Shown here: positions 16,683 to 24,111 of the stretch, in pieces
Position numbering within the stretch: the first letter of the stretch is position 1
Layout of the letters: every line of letters starts with the position of its first letter
Assembly: GCA_964342835.1 (NCBI GenBank)
Contig: CAYFGJ010000001.1
Span: forward strand, 1 to 31,362
Source: an uncultured Ectothiorhodospiraceae bacterium
Lineage (GTDB): Bacteria > Pseudomonadota > Gammaproteobacteria > GCA-002705445 > GCA-002716945
Reading direction: 5' to 3'
DNA: 31,362 nucleotides
Program-made: the position numbers and the translations under genes
Notes under the pieces: model-generated
The model's database searches: none
The model's input: only the letters and a program-made list of their open reading frames with translations
Told to the model about the DNA's origin: nothing

Positions 16683-17806
16683 TGAACAAGACTAAACATC
16701 AAGAATTATCATCTGATGAATTAATAAAATCTGTAATTCAAAAGATTGCGACTGGTCCTACACAAAGCAAAAATATAAGTAGAGAAGAAGCAAAACAGTG
16801 TATGTTAAATATACTTGATAATAAAATAGATGAAGTAAGATCATCAATATTCTTAATTGCATTACGTATGAAAAGAGAAACAGATGATGAGAATTTAGGT
16901 ATACATGATGCCATAATTGAAACAACTAAAACGATAGACATCTCTTTGGATCATTTAATAAATATTGCTGATCCTTATGATGGATTTACAAGACACATTC
17001 CATCATCCGCATTCATTCCACCAGTACTAGCGGAATTAGGTTATCCAACAATTTCACATGGATTAGAGTCTGTTGGGCCTAAATATGGTTGTACACATCA
17101 TCAGACCTATGCAGAACTTGGATTAAATCCAAAATTAAATCATGAACAAAATATTGAAAGATTATTAAATAAAAAAATTGGATGGGCATATATTGATCAA
17201 TGTCAATTTAATAAAAAACTTTTTAATCTTATGTCTCTTAGAAAAAAGATTATCAAGAGACCTGCTATTACAACAGTAGAAGTTTTAGTCAAACCTATTG
17301 CAGCTAAAAAAAATTATTTTGTTACTGGATATGTTCATAAAGCATATCCTCCAATATATTTAAAATTAGCAAGAAATGCAGGATTTAATAGTTCAATGGT
17401 TATAAAAGGAACAGAAGGTGGAATAATTCCCTCTCTAAGTCAACCAAGTAAAATATTTTCTTATAAAAATATTAATGATGAAGATGTGGCTAGTGAATAT
17501 GATCCAAAAAAAGATTGTGAAATTGATCAATCTATAAGAGCAGTAGAAATACCAAAAAATGCATCTATAACATCAGCGGTTGATAAAATTGAATCAAAAA
17601 TCCAACCAAAAGATATAGCAAAAGAGAGCGTAAAACAAGGAATTGAGGCACTGAAGGGGAAAGAGGGTTCAATGAAAGATTGTATAGCATATGGAGCATC
17701 TATTATCTTCAGCAAAATTAGTGGATACGATATACATAAAAGTAATAATGAAATTAAAAAAGTTCTCGATTCTGGATCTGCATTTGAGAGAATAAATCAT
17801 GAATAA
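16682..17806 (+). CDS. Anthranilate phosphoribosyltransferase-like (glycosyltransferase family 3, TrpD2/YbiB-like) protein
   Basis: N-terminal helical domain (IATGP...FLIALRMKRET..E), TISHG...VGPKYG, GYVH..Y, KGTEGG; lacks GTGGD and KHGN. Confidence 0.75.
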   Translation: MNKTKHQELSSDELIKSVIQKIATGPTQSKNISREEAKQCMLNILDNKIDEVRSSIFLIALRMKRETDDENLGIHDAIIETTKTIDISLDHLINIADPYDGFTRHIPSSAFIPPVLAELGYPTISHGLESVGPKYGCTHHQTYAELGLNPKLNHEQNIERLLNKKIGWAYIDQCQFNKKLFNLMSLRKKIIKRPAITTVEVLVKPIAAKKNYFVTGYVHKAYPPIYLKLARNAGFNSSMVIKGTEGGIIPSLSQPSKIFSYKNINDEDVASEYDPKKDCEIDQSIRAVEIPKNASITSAVDKIESKIQPKDIAKESVKQGIEALKGKEGSMKDCIAYGASIIFSKISGYDIHKSNNEIKKVLDSGSAFERINHE

Positions 17807-18239
17807 TACAATTACATTTGACTGGAGTGATAAAGAAATATGGAGTAGATCTGCATATAATACAATGTGGTGTTTAATTGGCTGCAGTATAGGTGATCTT
17901 GGTACAATTTATTATTTTCAAATAACAGGCATTCCTTGGACTACTATGTCAATAATGTTATTAGCAATGTTTAATGGCATTGTTACTAGTATTATTTTAG
18001 AAACATTTATTCTATTAAAACAAATGTCTTTTTTTGTTGCTCTTAAAACTGCTATGGGTATGAGTTTAATTTCTATGATAAGTATGGAATTAGCAATGAA
18101 TCTTGTTGATGTATTATTAACTGGAGGTGCTAGATTAAACCTTTATGTCATTCCAATCATGTTGATTGCGGGTTTTATAACACCCTGGCCATATAATTAT
18201 TGGAGATTAAAAAAATTTGGATCTGGTTGTTGCCATTAA
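17799..18239 (+). CDS. DUF4396-like membrane protein
   Basis: CLIGCSIGD, SIILET, MSLISMISMELAMN..D, GF..PWPYNYW; Met/Cys-rich, ends GCCH. Confidence 0.75.
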   Translation: MNNTITFDWSDKEIWSRSAYNTMWCLIGCSIGDLGTIYYFQITGIPWTTMSIMLLAMFNGIVTSIILETFILLKQMSFFVALKTAMGMSLISMISMELAMNLVDVLLTGGARLNLYVIPIMLIAGFITPWPYNYWRLKKFGSGCCH

Positions 18240-18865
18240 TTAATATGGGATGTAAAAATTTGTGTAACAGAATTTTCTATATTATTTTTTAATTTATTAG
18301 TAAGAGTCCTAAACCATGACTCACATATAACAATGGGTATTGCAACACTCAATCCGGCTGCGGTTGTTAATAAAGCTTCCCAAATACCACCAGAAAGCAT
18401 AGATGGATCAACATTTTTTCCAGCTATTTCCATTTGTTGGAAAGCTTCTATCATACCAAATACTGTACCCAACAAACCTAGAAGCGGAGCTATAGTAGCA
18501 ATAACTTGCAAAGAATCTAGTTTTTGATTATAAAATTCTATCCTTTCTTCACATAATCTTGTAATCTCTTCTCTTATATTGCTTTCTTCTTTTTCAGTAA
18601 TTTTCTTATGTTTCAATAATTGATACATTGTAAATGAAATAACTTCGGCAACAGGGTGCATAATATTTTGGATAGAATCATAAGCATGAGTTTTTTCGTC
18701 TTCTATCCATAACTGAATACTTTTATTAATTACAGCATGCTCAAAAAAGTTAGCATGATAAAATTGATGAAGTTTATATAAAATAACAGCTAAAGCAAAT
18801 ATTGATAATAATAACAATATGTATATGATTGGCCCGCCTAAATCTAATAATGCATTTATTTCCAT
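18236..18865 (-). CDS. exbB: MotA/TolQ/ExbB proton channel protein
   Basis: APLLGLLGTVFGMIEAF, GGIWEALLTTAAGL.VAIP. Confidence 0.9.
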   Translation of the reverse strand: MEINALLDLGGPIIYILLLLSIFALAVILYKLHQFYHANFFEHAVINKSIQLWIEDEKTHAYDSIQNIMHPVAEVISFTMYQLLKHKKITEKEESNIREEITRLCEERIEFYNQKLDSLQVIATIAPLLGLLGTVFGMIEAFQQMEIAGKNVDPSMLSGGIWEALLTTAAGLSVAIPIVICESWFRTLTNKLKNNIENSVTQIFTSHIN

Positions 18866-18950: not shown

Positions 18951-21035
18951 TTAAAAATCAACAATTAATGATCCCCAAAAACTTCTGCCGGGCTCATCTA
19001 CTCTATCAGCATCAGAATCAATAGCATTGGTGATATTTAAGTGTGTTGCATAGCGTTTATCGGTTAAGTTATTAACTCCTAAGGTAAGCTTATAATTAGG
19101 AGTTGGTTCAAAACCCGCATAAAGATCATACACCACATAGCCACCAGTTTTACCCACATCATAAATACGAGTGTCGACATTATCTTGAGTATCAGCAAAA
19201 CGGGCTCTGATCCCAAAATTAGTAGTTACGGTAACATAATCGACACTCATATCACCAGAAAGGGGCATTATCTGTGGCAAAGCAATATTGGTGGTATCAT
19301 CTGTACCATTTGTATAATTCAAATTTAATGTGGTAGATAAGTTAGGTGAAAATGATTTCATTAAAGTTAATTCATATCCCCATATTGTTGCATCCACATT
19401 TTTATATTTCTGTGCATCTGTAGCATCATTATCAAAAGTTGTATCTGTTGCACTCATTGATGCGCGATATGATGTAACAAAGTCATTAATATCATTGTGA
19501 TATATAGATGCATTTAAATTTGTATCAAACAATTTACCAACATAACCAAATTCAATAGTGTTATGTGTTTCTTCTTTCAAATTTGGATTACCTATATTTC
19601 TTCTTCTGTATTTTCCAGCCATTGCCATAGAGGTTTTTGCAGAATATAATTCTGTTGCATCTGGAGTTCTCTGGTTACGACTAAATGAAAGATAATAATT
19701 TCCATCTTGAAAATCTTTTTTATATCTTAAAAAGCCGCTCAAATTATTAAAATCTCTTTTACCAGCAGTTACTCCATAAAGACTATTAGCAGAAACTTGT
19801 AACGCGTGGTCACTACCTGGATCATCTGCAGCCCTTGTAGCATGTGTTTCAATTTGATCAAGTCTTAAGCCATAAGTCAAAATTGTATTAGTATTTAACT
19901 TATTATCTTTTTCCATAAAAATTCCAAATTTCTCGATTTCTACACCAGGCCATAAATATGTTAAATGATAATTAGTTCCACTAATCATCATATTTTGTTC
20001 AGCATCTCGAGTATTTTCTTCATAATCTATACCAACTCTCATATTCTTTCCGATTGTACCTATCAATCGTCCTCCATATGTATCAGATGCGGCAGGTGTT
20101 TTCATTTTCATTTCACTACCTCTTTCATTTGCAGATCGAACAGTATAGTTATCCATAAAATGATCCATATCTGATTGGAAAAGTTCAAAATTTAAACTAC
20201 TAAATGGTCCAACAGGGTTAGGGGTACGGTATTTAAAACTATAAATATCTGTGTAACTATAGACAATGTCCATTAACAAGCCAGCATATTCAACATTTTC
20301 CTGTTTATTGTTGTCATATATTATTTCAACTTTTGATCCACTAGATGTTCGTTGCCCAAGTATAAATGCATAATCTGATGTGCGATAAGCGGTTGCAGGT
20401 TTTATTCCTGTACCTGTTTCATATCGATTGGCATCAGAATAAGATCCATTGATTCTGAAATATGTATTGCCACTTCCAAATGTTATATCACCAATCGTAG
20501 TAGCAGCTTCAGAGTTAGAATCAAATGTTTGACCTATTTTTAACTTATATGGTTTTTGTTCTTTTTGATCTTTATTATTTGTTATATATGGCAACGGCTC
20601 TGTAACACGCTCAAAGTTCAAAGCACCTCCTGGTCCTCCAGCCCCAAACATTACAGATTGAGTTCCTTTAATCAAAGTAACAGAATCATAGTTTTCAATA
20701 TTTACATACGTAGTAGCAGGATCCATTTTAGAAGAACAAGAACCATATACCATTGCTCCATCCATAAAAGTATTTAATCGTTGATCACTTAAACCTCTAA
20801 TAGAAATATCTAATCCATGTCCCCCTCTTCTTATTGTATTAACTCCGTTAATATTTTTTAATAAATCTCCACCGTCAACAGGGTTAGAGGTCTTAAGATC
20901 TTCAATAGCTTCAATACTATTAGTATTTAATACATCAGGGCTTATAATTTTAATCCCTGTCAAATTTTCATCTGCGTTAGCATACGTTATATAACTTACT
21001 AATAACGATACTGATAATAATATATTTTTTTTCAT
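18951..21035 (-). CDS. TonB-dependent copper receptor, OprC/NosA-like
   Basis: Plug DGGDLL..INGV..IRRGGHG.D..IRG; CxxxM (GSCSSKMDP) and HxM (DHFMDNY) copper ligands; terminal Phe. Start placed at 21035 (SD AAAGGAGGA), not 21083. Confidence 0.85.
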   Translation of the reverse strand: MKKNILLSVSLLVSYITYANADENLTGIKIISPDVLNTNSIEAIEDLKTSNPVDGGDLLKNINGVNTIRRGGHGLDISIRGLSDQRLNTFMDGAMVYGSCSSKMDPATTYVNIENYDSVTLIKGTQSVMFGAGGPGGALNFERVTEPLPYITNNKDQKEQKPYKLKIGQTFDSNSEAATTIGDITFGSGNTYFRINGSYSDANRYETGTGIKPATAYRTSDYAFILGQRTSSGSKVEIIYDNNKQENVEYAGLLMDIVYSYTDIYSFKYRTPNPVGPFSSLNFELFQSDMDHFMDNYTVRSANERGSEMKMKTPAASDTYGGRLIGTIGKNMRVGIDYEENTRDAEQNMMISGTNYHLTYLWPGVEIEKFGIFMEKDNKLNTNTILTYGLRLDQIETHATRAADDPGSDHALQVSANSLYGVTAGKRDFNNLSGFLRYKKDFQDGNYYLSFSRNQRTPDATELYSAKTSMAMAGKYRRRNIGNPNLKEETHNTIEFGYVGKLFDTNLNASIYHNDINDFVTSYRASMSATDTTFDNDATDAQKYKNVDATIWGYELTLMKSFSPNLSTTLNLNYTNGTDDTTNIALPQIMPLSGDMSVDYVTVTTNFGIRARFADTQDNVDTRIYDVGKTGGYVVYDLYAGFEPTPNYKLTLGVNNLTDKRYATHLNITNAIDSDADRVDEPGRSFWGSLIVDF

Positions 21036-21109
21036 GTTTTTCCTCCTTTGGTTAATTAGATATTTGCAACATGTCAAAGACATTGCAAAAAAATAAATAT
21101 TATTGGTGT

Positions 21110-21424
21110 TTAAAATTGATTAGGAGGTGAACGTAGTTTAGGTGATATTAAAAAAGTAACAATAGATATGTCTTTATAAGACAAATTTTTTGCAGCAATT
21201 AAATCTAAAGATTCTAGATTTTCTAGATTAAGTTGTGAATCATATGAAAAATAATCTGGTGAAGATTGATAATTTGCATGCCTATCATTTGAATCTGATA
21301 ATTTACACAGATATGAAGTTTCATATGTTTTTATATCATTTGATGCAATAGATAGTAGTGGTAGCAATAAAATAGCCACACTTAAAAATATTGTAAAAAA
21401 ATTATGTATTATTGTATTTTTCAA
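21110..21424 (-). CDS. Putative leader/arrest peptide (CruR/DUF2946-like) upstream of the Cu receptor
   Basis: TTG start with GGGG SD, N-terminal hydrophobic signal segment, C-terminal LRSPP three residues before the stop; directly upstream of the OprC-like gene. Confidence 0.55.
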   Translation of the reverse strand: MKNTIIHNFFTIFLSVAILLLPLLSIASNDIKTYETSYLCKLSDSNDRHANYQSSPDYFSYDSQLNLENLESLDLIAAKNLSYKDISIVTFLISPKLRSPPNQF

Positions 21425-21465
21425 ATTTAACCCCGGTAGGTATTATAAACCAAATATTTATATTT

Positions 21466-21503
21466 AAAAAGTATAGCAGGTTATTTTTTATAACCTGCTA
21501 TAC
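21466..21503 (-). terminator. Intrinsic terminator of the candidate sRNA
   Basis: 14-bp perfect stem GTATAGCAGGTTAT/ATAACCTGCTATAC (21471-21503), 5-nt loop, followed by TTTTT on the minus strand. Confidence 0.88.
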
Positions 21504-21507
21504 AACT

Positions 21508-21534
21508 TCACATCGGAGAATGATGAAAGTTCTT
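21508..21534 (-). repeat. 27-nt direct repeat copy 1 (AAGAACTTTCATCATTCTCCGATGTGA on minus strand)
   Basis: 26/27 identical to 21753-21779, with a 21-nt exact core. Confidence 0.95.
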
Positions 21535-21625
21535 TGCAATATTAACAGGGTCAGACATCCTAGGGAAAGTTACTAGTTCTAATGAAATCTTCATATAAAT
21601 TATGTCAACCTGTCCCTGCATAACT

Positions 21626-21644
21626 GCAAATGAGAATCATTATC
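21626..21644. promoter_or_regulatory. Fur box
   Basis: GCAAATGAGAATCATTATC, 16/19 match to GATAATGATAATCATTATC; overlaps the -10 and start site. Confidence 0.85.
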
Positions 21645-21670
21645 ATATAAGAATTAGCCATGTCTGTCAA
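21642..21670 (-). promoter_or_regulatory. Sigma70 promoter of the candidate sRNA
   Basis: TTGACA (21670-21665)-17 nt-TATGAT (21647-21642). Confidence 0.8.
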
Positions 21671-21704
21671 TAGAATATTAGTAACATTTAGTGTTTTTAT
21701 GATT

Positions 21705-21735
21705 AAAATAATACAGCCAGCAAAAGCTGGCTGTA
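21705..21735 (-). terminator. Intrinsic terminator of the FecA-like receptor gene
   Basis: 10-bp stem TACAGCCAGC/GCTGGCTGTA (21712-21735), 4-nt loop, then TTATTTT on the minus strand. Confidence 0.88.
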
Positions 21736-21752
21736 CTACGTATAACTAACAC

Positions 21753-21779
21753 TCACACCGGAGAATGATGAAAGTTCTT
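21753..21779 (-). repeat. 27-nt direct repeat copy 2, starting in the receptor stop codon and running through the 3' UTR
   Basis: AAGAACTTTCATCATTCTCCGGTGTGA; a single A/G difference from copy 1. Confidence 0.95.
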
Positions 21780-24021
21780 AGAAATCTAATTTAACCCCAG
21801 CCATAAATGTCTGTGGTTTATTAGGCCTTTTGCCATAGTTGTGTTCAGAAGCTACTATAGTTTTATCAAATAAATTATCAATATTGATAAAGCCACGAGC
21901 ATTTCTAACTCCAGCAACTTTGATCGGTAAATTCATACTTGAATGCAAGTCAAATAACCATGCTTTACCAGTTCTGTAAGTATTCTCAGCATTAGTAAAT
22001 GTATCGTCGTGATACTTAGCACCTAATGTTACATCCCAATTTGGAGTTTCAGCTCCTAGAGAAACATACATTTGAAAATCTGGTACATAAGCAATAGATT
22101 TACCCAATTGACGTGGTTCGTCATCTGTATTTGTTTTATATTCAGAACTTTGAAGTATACCACTTACTAGTAATGGGTATTTTATTGACTTCATAGATGA
22201 ATGGCCTTTCATTGTTGGTGCTGCAAAAATATCAGCTAATCTGTATTGGAATTCAACGCCATGAATTTCAGCTTTACCGGCATTGTTTGAATCACCAATA
22301 TTACCAGTACATCCGTTGGCAATTAAACATGATTCTAACAAGTTATCGTAATCTACATAAAATGCAATAAGTTCTATAAAGCTATCAGGCGTGCTCATTC
22401 TGAGCCCTACTTCATAATTATCAGATTCTTCAGGAGTAGCATCTGCTGATGTTCCTGCACCAATAGGTGAATAACCTTGATGATAACCAGCAAATATTTG
22501 TGCTCCACCAGGTATTTGATAAACTGTTGCCGCACTCATCATAGTTTCATCATCATTAACATCCTGTTTTGAGTTACCTGGATTAGCTTCAGTTCCATCA
22601 TTAGACTCAGTATCTTCATATCTTAATCCAAGAGTGGTTGTAAAATTTCCATGTGTGATGATATCTTTGATGTGCCATGATTCAGCATCGGTATCTTTTA
22701 ATTCACCAGCGCCCTCTGTAGCACCTGTTTCTGATTTAAATGTTAAAGTGTTATTAGAATCAAGGCCATATTTACGAATAAAACCACTATCTTGTCTTAA
22801 ACGATAATCTTTATGACGTCTATAACCAATTTCTATATCATGGTTACCCATTTGTTTATTTATTACAAACTGAACACCTGTCATTCCATAATCTCTGTGT
22901 CCCATAGCCATTTCTAGATATTCGTTTGAGTCTGTAGCAGTAGTACCTGTAATAATATTACAAGCTCTAAGTTCATTTCCTGCATCTGCTGCACACGCAC
23001 CTTGCATATCTAGAGCTGATAGTGAAACAGATGAAACTGATCCACTGCCATTACCTTGTGGGTCAACATATACTTTGCCCATCTTACCCCAGAGTCTACT
23101 AAATCTTGTTTTATAAAGTTTAGAAGTAACTCTCATGGTTGATGAAGGTTCCATATAATGTGTAAAAATATAGCGGTGATAATCTGCATCCATTTGATCT
23201 GCTGCCGAAGCGCCATATCTTTGGAATGGATCAGAATGAAATGCTGCAGTTGTTAATCCAATGTATGTTTCATTAGATGTTTCTTCAGTGTTTTGACTTG
23301 ATAATTCAAAATATTGATTCCACTTACTCCCAACTGGTGTATATCTGATTTTAAATAAATCACTTGTTTTATCGAAACCAGTATCACCTGGATTACTTGT
23401 CCCTTTAATACTTTTATAACCGTCGGCACGATAGTCATGTATTTCAAAAACATAACTTATTGATGGTGTAAGTTGTGCACCATAATAAGCATGATTTCTA
23501 TTAAAACCATCATCACCTAAAGTAAAAGAATAATGTCCTTTCGTTCCTTTAGTAGGTACTTGTCGCGATATCCAGTTGATAGTTCCTGCTGTTGTTTTTG
23601 GTCCTGTTCCGACTGCTGCAGGTCCTTTTAGAACTTCAACACCTTCCATACGTCCAGTATCTGGATAAAAATACATGCTAAAGTTGGAATACTGCGCAGG
23701 TCCCTGTAGAACACCATCTTCCATAGTATTAATTTTCTGCGATCTTAATGGATTTACCCCTCTCATTCCAAGATTGGTACGTAGTCCATATCCATCTTCA
23801 GTCTGAGAATACACGCCAGGTATACGAGATAATATTCTCTCTGGATCTGTATAATTGTATTTTTTTATTTCATCATCACCTATAAAGTGTGCTGAACCAG
23901 CTTGTTGTGTCTCATCTTGAGAACCAAATACACTTACTGATCCTAGATCTTCTGCATCAGAAATATTAGTTGTTAATATTAATGCTGCACTTATAGATAA
24001 TAATCTTCCTATAATTTTCAT
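21778..24021 (-). CDS. TonB-dependent iron receptor, FecA-like family
   Basis: IPGVY...EDGYGLR.N.GMRG..P.RS.KI..MEDG, MEGVEVLKGP, terminal Phe; Fur boxes upstream. Start placed at 24021 (SD GAGG) rather than 24033. Confidence 0.85.
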   Translation of the reverse strand: MKIIGRLLSISAALILTTNISDAEDLGSVSVFGSQDETQQAGSAHFIGDDEIKKYNYTDPERILSRIPGVYSQTEDGYGLRTNLGMRGVNPLRSQKINTMEDGVLQGPAQYSNFSMYFYPDTGRMEGVEVLKGPAAVGTGPKTTAGTINWISRQVPTKGTKGHYSFTLGDDGFNRNHAYYGAQLTPSISYVFEIHDYRADGYKSIKGTSNPGDTGFDKTSDLFKIRYTPVGSKWNQYFELSSQNTEETSNETYIGLTTAAFHSDPFQRYGASAADQMDADYHRYIFTHYMEPSSTMRVTSKLYKTRFSRLWGKMGKVYVDPQGNGSGSVSSVSLSALDMQGACAADAGNELRACNIITGTTATDSNEYLEMAMGHRDYGMTGVQFVINKQMGNHDIEIGYRRHKDYRLRQDSGFIRKYGLDSNNTLTFKSETGATEGAGELKDTDAESWHIKDIITHGNFTTTLGLRYEDTESNDGTEANPGNSKQDVNDDETMMSAATVYQIPGGAQIFAGYHQGYSPIGAGTSADATPEESDNYEVGLRMSTPDSFIELIAFYVDYDNLLESCLIANGCTGNIGDSNNAGKAEIHGVEFQYRLADIFAAPTMKGHSSMKSIKYPLLVSGILQSSEYKTNTDDEPRQLGKSIAYVPDFQMYVSLGAETPNWDVTLGAKYHDDTFTNAENTYRTGKAWLFDLHSSMNLPIKVAGVRNARGFINIDNLFDKTIVASEHNYGKRPNKPQTFMAGVKLDF

Positions 24022-24092: not shown

Positions 24093-24111
24093 AAAAATGA
24101 GAATCATTATC
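24093..24111. promoter_or_regulatory. Fur box
   Basis: AAAAATGAGAATCATTATC, 16/19 match; lies between the receptor and the divergent exbD-exbD-tonB genes. Confidence 0.82.

Follow-up and report, generated by a model that had tools for sequence, protein, structure and literature searches.

The small ORF preceding the copper-receptor gene in this DNA (the window, i.e. the whole stretch analysed, comprises 31,362 nucleotides) is probably an arrest leader derived from the CruR type, which still gates translation of the receptor and has lost its copper input. The leader shows homology to CruR/DUF2946 leaders and conservation of the R-x-P-P motif, it has lost the CxxC sensor site, and a predicted mRNA helix that includes the receptor's Shine-Dalgarno (SD) sequence is conserved among its relatives (Table 1). 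In the proposed model, the ribosome would stall on this motif and thereby unmask the SD, and the switch would be blind to copper.

Table 1. Features of the leader-receptor locus, with coordinates in the window
Feature	Coordinates	Strand	Remarks
Possible leader promoter	21434..21447	-	-10 TATAAT (21447-21442), start near G21434; read from sequence
Leader ORF, 104 aa	21110..21424	-	TTG start, TAA stop (21112-21110)
Signal-like N-terminus, residues 1-28	21341..21424	-	Translation, by inspection
Cys40 codon (TGT), sole Cys of leader	21305..21307	-	Invariant column, alignment of 26 leaders
Degenerate sensor site H49-A50-N51-Y52-Q53	21266..21280	-	H-C-x-x-C at equivalent position in relatives
Candidate arrest motif R98-S99-P100-P101	21122..21133	-	3 residues ahead of stop
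Pro-Pro codons CCU CCU, predicted anti-SD strand	21122..21127	-	SD-paired in minimum free energy (MFE) and centroid folds, P 0.97-0.98
Inner spacer hairpin, imperfect	21063..21089	-	6 + 4 bp with 2-nt bulge; MFE and centroid folds; nested within the helix of Pro-Pro codons and SD (PP:SD)
Receptor SD, AGGAGG	21042..21047	-	6 nt before ATG
OprC/NosA-type TonB-dependent copper receptor, 694 aa	18951..21035	-	ATG at 21035
ExbB/TolQ-like gene	18236..18865	-	Pfam MotA_ExbB; 3' of receptor and on its strand; conservation begins near 18778

Leader ORF, candidate arrest motif and gene context

The leader was compared with its counterparts at 26 syntenic loci, which belong to six genera within one family of uncultured marine Gammaproteobacteria with genomes of about 1 Mb, and where the leader-receptor order is kept in all 26. 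Its TTG start codon is matched in the alignment by the ATG of the leader in the sister species, and the N-terminus, as read by inspection, contains K2 and a 19-residue hydrophobic run (F9-A27) followed by S-I-A|S. A hydrophobic N-terminus is common to all 26 homologous leaders, with Pro22 near-invariant. The leader may thus be regarded as carrying the signal-like N-terminus typical of the CruR/DUF2946 family, where an export signal is found in more than 95% of members. Coordinates and translation bear out the original prediction of a 104-residue ORF with an export-like N-terminus and an RSPP near its C-terminus, lying 74 nt (leader stop to receptor ATG) ahead of an OprC-like gene. The statement that it has only Cys40 and His49 holds as far as Cys40 is the sole cysteine and CxxC is absent, but it overlooks His7.

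The leader ends with the RSPP codons, N-Q-F and the TAA stop codon, and R-[A/S/D]-P-P followed by two to four residues forms the C-terminus of the leader at every one of the 26 syntenic loci, with R98, P100, P101 and C40 invariant in the alignment. The original prediction had made itself dependent on conservation of the motif in homologous leaders, and on this point it holds. The motif is otherwise rare, as R-[ASDG]-P-P occurs just twice in 2579 stop-to-stop ORFs of at least 60 aa (426,740 aa in a 0.99-Mb genome), each time as an RSPP that lies exactly 3 residues short of a stop and directly 5' of a TonB-dependent receptor, and ORFs of at least 200 aa contain none (1.7 expected from composition). 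RSPP and RDPP are arrest-permissive variants of R-x-P-P, where RSPP is only partially permissive in ApdA/ApdP and has also been recovered in random arrest screens (PMC12992588). As judged from the translated ORF, RSPP thus represents a putative variant of the arrest motif of CruR/DUF2946 leaders. Elsewhere in the genome, a second RSPP leader, which bears CxxC, lies upstream of a ZnuD-like receptor, the SD of which is hidden in a predicted 15-bp stem (z -3.99).

The receptor is most similar to TIGR01778 (TonB-copper) in NCBIfam, with 402 bits, below the cutoff of 472, and to Pseudomonas aeruginosa OprC (6FOK, E 1.5e-49) among solved structures. All four copper ligands of OprC (C143/M147/H323/M325) are kept, as they align to C100/M104/H292/M294 of the receptor, which thus retains the CxxxM-HxM copper site of OprC/NosA receptors. 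The ExbB/TolQ-like gene is syntenic in 22 of the 26 loci. As in the CruR family, where the partner genes include TonB-dependent transporters of TIGR01778 type, PepSY, PCuAC and others, a small leader ORF appears to head an operon that contains a copper-related gene.

Metatranscriptome contigs with 100% identity span 21277-21434 and 21102-21252, which indicates presence in RNA libraries only, not transcript structure or regulation. A separate weak promoter for the leader seems more likely than read-through from the upstream Fur-box promoter, because a strong terminator (21503-21471) intervenes between the latter and the leader, and one RNA-library contig terminates exactly at 21434 (a single contig of low depth, hence weak evidence).

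Relationship to CruR/DUF2946 leaders and loss of the CxxC site

The leader has no match in Pfam and NCBIfam scans even at E 10, and the HMM search against DUF2946 (PF11162) that had been proposed as a check leaves it unmatched up to this threshold, while only one of the 26 relatives is matched by PF11162 (E 0.26). Profile comparison ties the clade weakly to DUF2946, as hhalign, with the clade set against 25 canonical DUF2946 sequences, yields a probability of 58% and an E-value of 1e-4 over 104 columns with the motifs superposed, and the weakest hits of the clade profile form a bridge, matching Pfam DUF2946 at E 1e-4 to 0.05. These comparisons support descent of the leader from the stalling leaders of the CruR/DUF2946 family and its provisional identification as an arrest-type leader of the CruR kind.

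Such leaders evolve too fast for single-sequence searches, as the leader retrieves solely a 98%-identical copy from 5.8 billion proteins, and a canonical DUF2946 protein retrieves only itself. The clade profile, by comparison, retrieves 413 proteins (66 clusters at 50% identity), with no Pfam domain among the best 120 listed. A whole marine clade of these leaders is overlooked by Pfam DUF2946, and surveys keyed to RAPP/RGPP would overlook forms with RSPP or RDPP.

Among the closest known systems is CruR (Bp2923) from Bordetella pertussis (DUF2946/PF11162; Roy et al. 2022, PMC9426467). Like CruR, the leader is small and apparently exported, opens an operon that includes a TonB-dependent transporter and contains R-x-P-P three residues from the stop; its relatives carry CxxC at the same spacing of about 45 residues, and OprC-type (TIGR01778) receptors are among the listed partners of the CruR family. 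It differs from CruR in having RSPP instead of RAPP, no CxxC and no Pfam match, and in a 74-nt spacer with the SD predicted to pair with the stall codons; in CruR, the spacer is long and termination depends on Rho.

The leader has H-A-N-Y-Q where its relatives have H-C-x-x-C, with 44 residues intervening between Q53 and R98. CxxC is present in 23 of the 26 syntenic leaders, 42-46 residues upstream of R-x-P-P; the corresponding spacing is 43-47 in canonical DUF2946 members, and the published value for CruR, from CxxC to the arrest motif, is 45 +/- 2 residues (PMC9426467). Among the six genera, both cysteines are gone solely in the leader's own genus (source genome and sister species). Because the relatives keep CxxC at the canonical spacing, its absence is, on this alignment, a real and lineage-specific loss; that the usual CxxC is missing, as originally stated, is confirmed by translation and by alignment with the relatives. 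Accelerated divergence of the leader in the CxxC-less genus was also considered and rejected, since leader identity is 26% at 83% receptor identity in this genus and 24-34% at similar receptor identity in CxxC-bearing genera, a rate not above theirs, so that there is no independent sign of relaxed constraint.

Predicted pairing of the Pro-Pro codons with the receptor SD

The Pro-Pro codons (CCUCC) are predicted to pair with the receptor SD (GGAGG) in 24 of the 26 loci (P about 1), while at the two RDPP loci the SD pairs with the next codons instead in the predicted folds. In the sister species, CCACCCC faces GGGGGG, so that both strands have changed and the pairing is kept. The spacer hairpin noted originally is real in both MFE and centroid folds, but it is merely the inner part of the larger PP:SD helix; most of the 26 loci are predicted to have an AT-rich inner hairpin at the equivalent position. 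The idea that the spacer contains an intrinsic terminator was rejected, as the T-run precedes the hairpin instead of following it. The Rfam scan of 20900-21900 yields nothing above the gathering score, and the fold energy at the leader locus is unexceptional (z -1.35).

Several observations are signs of selection on the predicted helix. Among 733 long ORFs of the genome, no more than 11 (<=1.5%) are preceded by GGAGG, whereas GGAGG or a close variant is found at all 26 receptor loci. CCU encodes the first Pro of the pair in 21 of the 26 leaders, versus 33% at Pro-Pro sites genome-wide. Sequestration of the SD is 0.98 in the native sequence versus a mean of 0.57 for synonymous recodings, with 11 of 150 recodings equal to the native one; this test lends support, but it saturates and lacks phylogenetic independence. 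When the footprint of a stalled ribosome is masked, SD pairing decreases from a median of 1.0 to 0.32 across the loci and from 0.98 to 0.50 at the leader. Since the Pro-Pro codons pair with the SD, a ribosome stalled on RSPP would uncover it.

Two further observations count against the proposed switch: the SD at the leader locus remains about 50% paired with the footprint masked, and any Pro-Pro codons placed near a strong SD would account for much of the PP:SD pairing, the synonymous mean being already 0.57.

Proposed mechanism, alternatives and significance

The leader would serve as a gate on translation of the OprC-type receptor. In the free mRNA, the AGGAGG would be locked in a helix with the leader's CCUCCU, which is closed by the inner hairpin. 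The leader ribosome would stall on R-S-P-P with P100 and P101 occupying the P and A sites, respectively, as do Pro3 and Pro4 in the toeprints of CruR arrest (PMC12992588), and its occupation of the anti-SD strand would free the SD for a second ribosome to initiate on the receptor. We infer that the expression platform here is sequestration of the SD by the stall codons, not Rho termination. In the five sister genera, CxxC at 42-46 residues would lie just outside the exit tunnel of the stalled ribosome, so that copper could modulate release; with both cysteines gone from the leader's genus, copper probably no longer adjusts the stall-dependent opening via the known site, and the likely outcome would be copper-blind, stall-dependent and effectively constitutive translation of the receptor.

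CutF from Rhodobacter capsulatus likewise belongs to the DUF2946 leaders, and its stalling opens an mRNA stem-loop that covers the ribosome-binding site belonging to the downstream gene cutO (Ozturk et al.; bioRxiv 10.1101/2025.02.05.636593). CutF, however, contains CxxxC and PPP, stalls upon copper induction and has a detoxifying oxidase as target, whereas the leader, which has lost its Cys motif, would act on an uptake receptor and supplies the predicted anti-SD strand with its own Pro-Pro codons. Mutation of the Cys motif in CutF switches expression off, not on (bioRxiv 10.1101/2025.02.05.636593), so the consequence of the CxxC loss is not certain.

The leader could instead still be a metal sensor through other ligands (Cys40 with nearby Asp, His or Tyr, or a periplasmic mixed disulfide), making the receptor copper- or redox-responsive, which is unlikely but deserves more weight than the other alternatives. 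Cys40 is invariant in 26/26 leaders, and both CxxC-less species, although their leaders are only 26% identical overall, keep it together with the block C-K-L-S-D, so that some sensing role may remain, and the partly degenerate Cys motifs of other members (SICC, HCDQS and CDC) imply that the sensor site tolerates variation. A lone thiol is, however, a poor Cu site, and His49 has no counterpart in the sister species, which contains no His at that position. Cys40 aligns with the first Cys of the family, equivalent to C51 of B. pertussis CruR, which is dispensable for regulation (C51S), while CxxC is required for copper control, as the C90S+C93S mutant keeps expression and loses this control (PMC9426467). 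A substitute metal site formed by C40/H49, as originally suggested for a divergent metal sensor, is thus unlikely and finds no support in the alignment. Control as in B. pertussis, where stalling blocks Rho loading and release leads to Rho-dependent termination in the spacer, would make the PP:SD pairing incidental; it is the mechanism shown for the sole characterised CruR linked to a TonB-dependent transporter, and a Bordetella-like termination layer may exist, as the genome contains a rho gene. We consider it improbable, given a spacer of just 74 nt (33-83 nt in most relatives) in a family described as having "long intergenic distances", its AT-rich and C-poor composition, and the conservation of a strong SD and its pairing.

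Decay of the leader into a relic without stalling or regulation, with the receptor expressed independently, might be read from the missing sensor motif, a peptide body just 26% identical between the two species and an RSPP weaker than RAPP. This is very improbable, since both species have an intact ORF whose RSPP stands exactly 3 residues ahead of the stop and retain the signal-like N-terminus and Cys40, both helix strands have changed together, the whole proteome has otherwise been purged of RxPP, and RNA-library contigs span the leader. The least credible reading, to which we attach hardly any weight, is a monitor of secretion (Sec/YidC) like SecM, ApdA or ApdP. Like the leader, these RAPP/RGPP arrest peptides combine an export signal with an R-x-P-P type motif close to the C-terminus (PMC10951233, PMC12992588), but they regulate secretion genes and have no metal link, whereas the homologues of the leader bear a metal-type CxxC. 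Because the genes downstream code for the copper receptor and for an ExbB-like protein and not for Sec/YidC components, nothing points to the secretion-monitoring arrest peptide also proposed originally. The original view of a divergent CruR-like arrest leader therefore stands for the conserved R-x-P-P and for a leader of CruR kind before a copper receptor, while a C40/H49 metal site and a secretion-monitoring role are not supported.

Leaders of the CruR/CutF type represent a recently described form of copper sensing through the nascent chain, and the locus provides a natural comparison in which the arrest motif, spacing, export signal and mRNA switch are kept while CxxC is lost. The CxxC-bearing sister genera, with the same gene context, and the likewise CxxC-bearing paralogue in the same genome may make it possible to tell the sensor apart from the arrest and expression platform. 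More tentatively, the stall codons throughout the marine clade could themselves be the anti-SD strand (the same 6 nt, CCU CCN), forming a direct unmasking switch, and one genus could have gone further, to a copper-blind gate or to a sensor of another cue via the single invariant Cys. If so, the CxxC-less genus would be the natural equivalent of the laboratory SxxS mutant.

The leader, its receptor and their neighbourhood

The leader ends in L-R-S-P-P-N-Q-F-stop (RSPP codons at 21133-21122), and its translation opens with K2, a 19-residue hydrophobic run (F9-A27) and S-I-A↓S. It is separated by a 74-nt spacer, containing an imperfect hairpin at approximately 21064-21089, from a receptor with Plug and TonB-barrel domains, whose top NCBIfam match is TIGR01778 TonB-copper (402 bits, cutoff 472) and whose best match among solved structures is the P. 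aeruginosa protein OprC (6FOK; E 1.5e-49). OprC binds copper through C143, M147, H323 and M325 (PMC8610252); all four are matched in the alignment by C100, M104, H292 and M294 and, judged by these ligands, the receptor would remain a copper transporter. The original prediction of a 104-aa ORF with an export-like N-terminus, LRSPP near its end and a 74-nt gap is thus borne out by the sequence, and its term "OprC-like" is justified as far as the metal site is concerned. It was also right that CxxC is absent and C40 the sole cysteine, while its listing of His49 as the only histidine missed H7.

Coordinates of the features discussed
Feature	Position	Strand	Remarks
Leader ORF	21110-21424	-	TTG start, 104 aa
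Receptor SD	21047-21042	-	AGGAGG, perfect, ahead of ATG 21035
ExbB/TolQ-like gene	18236-18865	-	downstream of copper receptor, same strand
DUF4396 gene	17799-18239	+	convergent on ExbB/TolQ-like gene
TATAAT	21447-21442	-	candidate -10 of leader promoter
Terminator, 14-bp	21503-21471	-	upstream of leader
Promoter TTGACA-17-TATGAT	upstream of leader	-	overlapped by Fur-box-like sequence
Fur-box promoter and terminator unit	21466-21670	-	85% identical in the sister species (G001)
Second RSPP leader	C36 9833-10072 (L067:934-1173); G001 copy L069:1501-1740	+	79 aa, from the ORF count

A search with the receptor detected it in 27 of the 37 genomes of the family; each of these has about 1 Mb, and uncultured marine Gammaproteobacteria are represented among them by MAGs. 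At the 26 receptor loci from six genera where the upstream DNA was read, a leader ORF ending in R-[A/S/D]-P-P, 2-4 further residues and a stop is always present. The order siderophore-type receptor, leader, OprC-type receptor, ExbB-like gene (syntenic in 22/26 loci) and convergent DUF4396 gene is kept across the six genera, which suggests that the ExbB/TolQ-like and DUF4396 genes may provide a dedicated energiser for the copper receptor. With a receptor and an ExbB-like gene downstream rather than Sec/YidC parts, the proposed role as a secretion monitor is not supported. Only C40, R98, P100 and P101 (window numbering) are invariant in the alignment of the 26 leaders, so the lack of RSPP conservation that would have refuted the original prediction is not seen; this conservation of the motif supports its arrest-leader reading. 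Two genomes of another genus have R-D-P-P in place of R-A/S-P-P (L017:1095-1418 and L019:1137-1454), while some leaders of one genus (L021, L027) have no ATG, GTG or TTG before the hydrophobic segment and possibly start at ATT or ATA.

The promoter-terminator unit upstream is far better conserved in G001 than the leader coding sequence, its terminator stem shows a compensatory A-T to G-C change between the two species, and it looks like a separate small RNA. A second copy of the unit's CU-rich seed lies in the siderophore-type receptor's 3' UTR, at 21705-21780 (-), and the gene for this receptor is preceded, at 24096-24111, by an identical copy of the 16-nt Fur-box-like sequence. Since an RNA-library contig ends at 21434 close to the TATAAT, we suggest that the leader is transcribed from a weak promoter of its own with a 5' UTR of 10 nt, as indicated by this single contig of depth 2.

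Relationship to DUF2946 and the CxxC motif

The DUF2946 search envisaged in the original prediction gave no match to the window leader at E up to 10, and PF11162 scores only one of the 26 syntenic leaders (E 0.26); among the best 120 of 413 metagenomic relatives, no Pfam domain was found. Profile-profile comparison of the 26-leader alignment with 25 canonical DUF2946 sequences (ORFs from other Pseudomonadota) gave a probability of 58% and E 1e-4 over 104 columns, with the signals, the first cysteines and the CxxC motifs of the two sets aligned to each other and RxPP aligned to RAPP. The same alignment, searched as a profile against 1.84 billion representative proteins, recovered 66 clusters, nearly all combining R-[A/S/G/D]-P-P with a CxxC 42-47 residues before it, and its weakest significant matches reach PF11162 (E 1e-4 to 0.05; best 23.2 bits, cutoff 23.7). 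Because of these profile links and the shared architecture, the clade is regarded as divergent CruR-type leaders, and the window leader as a putative CruR-type descendant failing one defining feature, CxxC.

CxxC (CDHC, CDSC, CNVC, CDKC, CENC, CDNC or CVCC) lies 42-46 residues before the Arg in 23 of the 26 leaders, the corresponding distance in the canonical ORFs being 43-47 (n = 25). The other three are the window leader, that of G001 and one retaining only the last two cysteines (SICC). H49-A50-N51-Y52-Q53 occupies the position of H-C-x-x-C in the window leader, with 44 residues from Q53 to R98, and G001 has L-N-L-N and no His there, so the proposed C40/H49 metal site is not supported. Both cysteines are absent only from the window-type and G001-type members of the 66 clusters and, since all other genera and the outgroup have CxxC, its loss in the window's genus is the parsimonious reading. 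Partly degenerate motifs (SICC, HCDQS, LLCC, CDC) occur at L027:3526-3924 (-) and in the proteins P0157, P0173 and P0179; erosion of CxxC has therefore occurred more than once, though loss of both cysteines is confined to the window's genus. Some sensing role may persist, as both CxxC-less species retain Cys40 and a C-K-L-S-D block in leaders that are 26% identical overall. This divergence, at 83% receptor identity, is no outlier compared with CxxC-bearing genera, and thus gives no independent sign of relaxed constraint.

Predicted pairing of the Pro-Pro codons with the receptor SD

When the segment from the Arg codon to just beyond the receptor start was folded, CCUCCU (P100-P101 codons, 21127-21122) was predicted to pair with the SD at a probability of 0.97, and the spacer hairpin of the original prediction reappeared nested within this helix. 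The pairing is predicted in 24/26 loci with a probability of about 1, while at the two loci with RDPP it is the two Leu codons just after Pro-Pro that pair with the SD, and a stalled ribosome would still cover these. In G001, CCACCCC faces GGGGGG, both strands differing from the window with pairing maintained.

Three controls (SD rarity, CCU bias and recoding) addressed whether the helix is selected or automatic, in 26 loci that are related to one another. Of the 733 long ORFs in the window genome, no more than 11 (at most 1.5%) are preceded by GGAGG, and about two thirds have no SD-like motif by crude start calls; all 26 receptors have GGAGG or one of its close variants AGGAG and GGGGG. CCU serves as the first Pro codon in 21/26 leaders; its genome-wide share is 33% at the first position of Pro-Pro sites and 38% among all Pro codons. 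Synonymous recoding of the last leader codons reduced SD sequestration in 23/26 loci; in the window the native value was 0.98 against a recoded mean of 0.57, the latter remaining high owing to the intrinsic anti-SD-like character of CCNCC, and the native was matched by 11 of 150 recodings. The window fold does not stand out in energy (z -1.35). Once the footprint of a ribosome with its centre at the first Pro codon was masked, the median SD pairing fell from 1.0 to 0.32 and the window value from 0.98 to 0.50.

A second RSPP leader and the proposed gate

Among all stop-to-stop ORFs of at least 60 aa in six frames of the window assembly (0.99 Mb, about 30% G+C; 2579 ORFs, 426,740 residues), R-[A/S/D/G]-P-P occurs exactly twice, both times as RSPP three residues before the stop of an ORF directly upstream of a TonB-dependent receptor. 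In ORFs of at least 200 aa none was found against 1.7 expected from composition, a scarcity consistent with the report that bacterial proteomes have been purged of RAPP-like motifs (PMC12992588). The second ORF, 96% identical in G001, has a His/Cys-rich N-terminus, HDDHDHQCGCVKC, carrying H-D-D-H-D-H-Q-C-G-C-V-K-C with no hydrophobic signal ahead of the Cys motif, and CVKC is separated from RSPP by exactly 45 residues. The gene that follows 41 nt downstream encodes a TonB receptor with an E/H-rich loop, whose top NCBIfam match is ZnuD (147 bits, partial), and the last codons of this second leader form a predicted 15-bp stem with the receptor SD (z -3.99, 0/200 shuffles). We regard it as a candidate arrest leader for zinc or copper sensing; as it bears cysteines, the genome still uses such a leader, and only the OprC leader has undergone the loss.

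In the PURE system, arrest on CruR places the third and fourth RAPP codons in the P and A sites, respectively; RSPP and RDPP are arrest-permissive variants (PMC12992588), and stalling on CutF of R. capsulatus melts a stem shielding the cutO RBS (bioRxiv 10.1101/2025.02.05.636593). By the proposed mechanism, the receptor SD would be shut unless a ribosome arrested on RSPP covered the anti-SD strand, freeing the SD and permitting receptor translation. Copper presumably tunes arrest release in CxxC-bearing relatives, and this input would be lost in the window leader. In B. pertussis, downstream expression requires RAPP, and a CxxC-to-SxxS change leaves expression intact and abolishes copper control (PMC9426467); by analogy with this mutant, the window gate probably does not respond to copper and, in effect, stands open each time the leader is translated. 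However, the sign of the effect is not guaranteed, since mutation of the CutF Cys motif turns expression off (bioRxiv 10.1101/2025.02.05.636593). Genes for rho, efp and two copies of fur are present in the genome, and with rho a Rho-dependent layer may exist at the leader, yet the short and C-poor spacer makes Rho unlikely as the main mechanism. What is new in the arrest-gated reading is an apparently CruR-derived RSPP leader without CxxC, from a clade invisible to Pfam, in which putative stall codons would double as the anti-SD.
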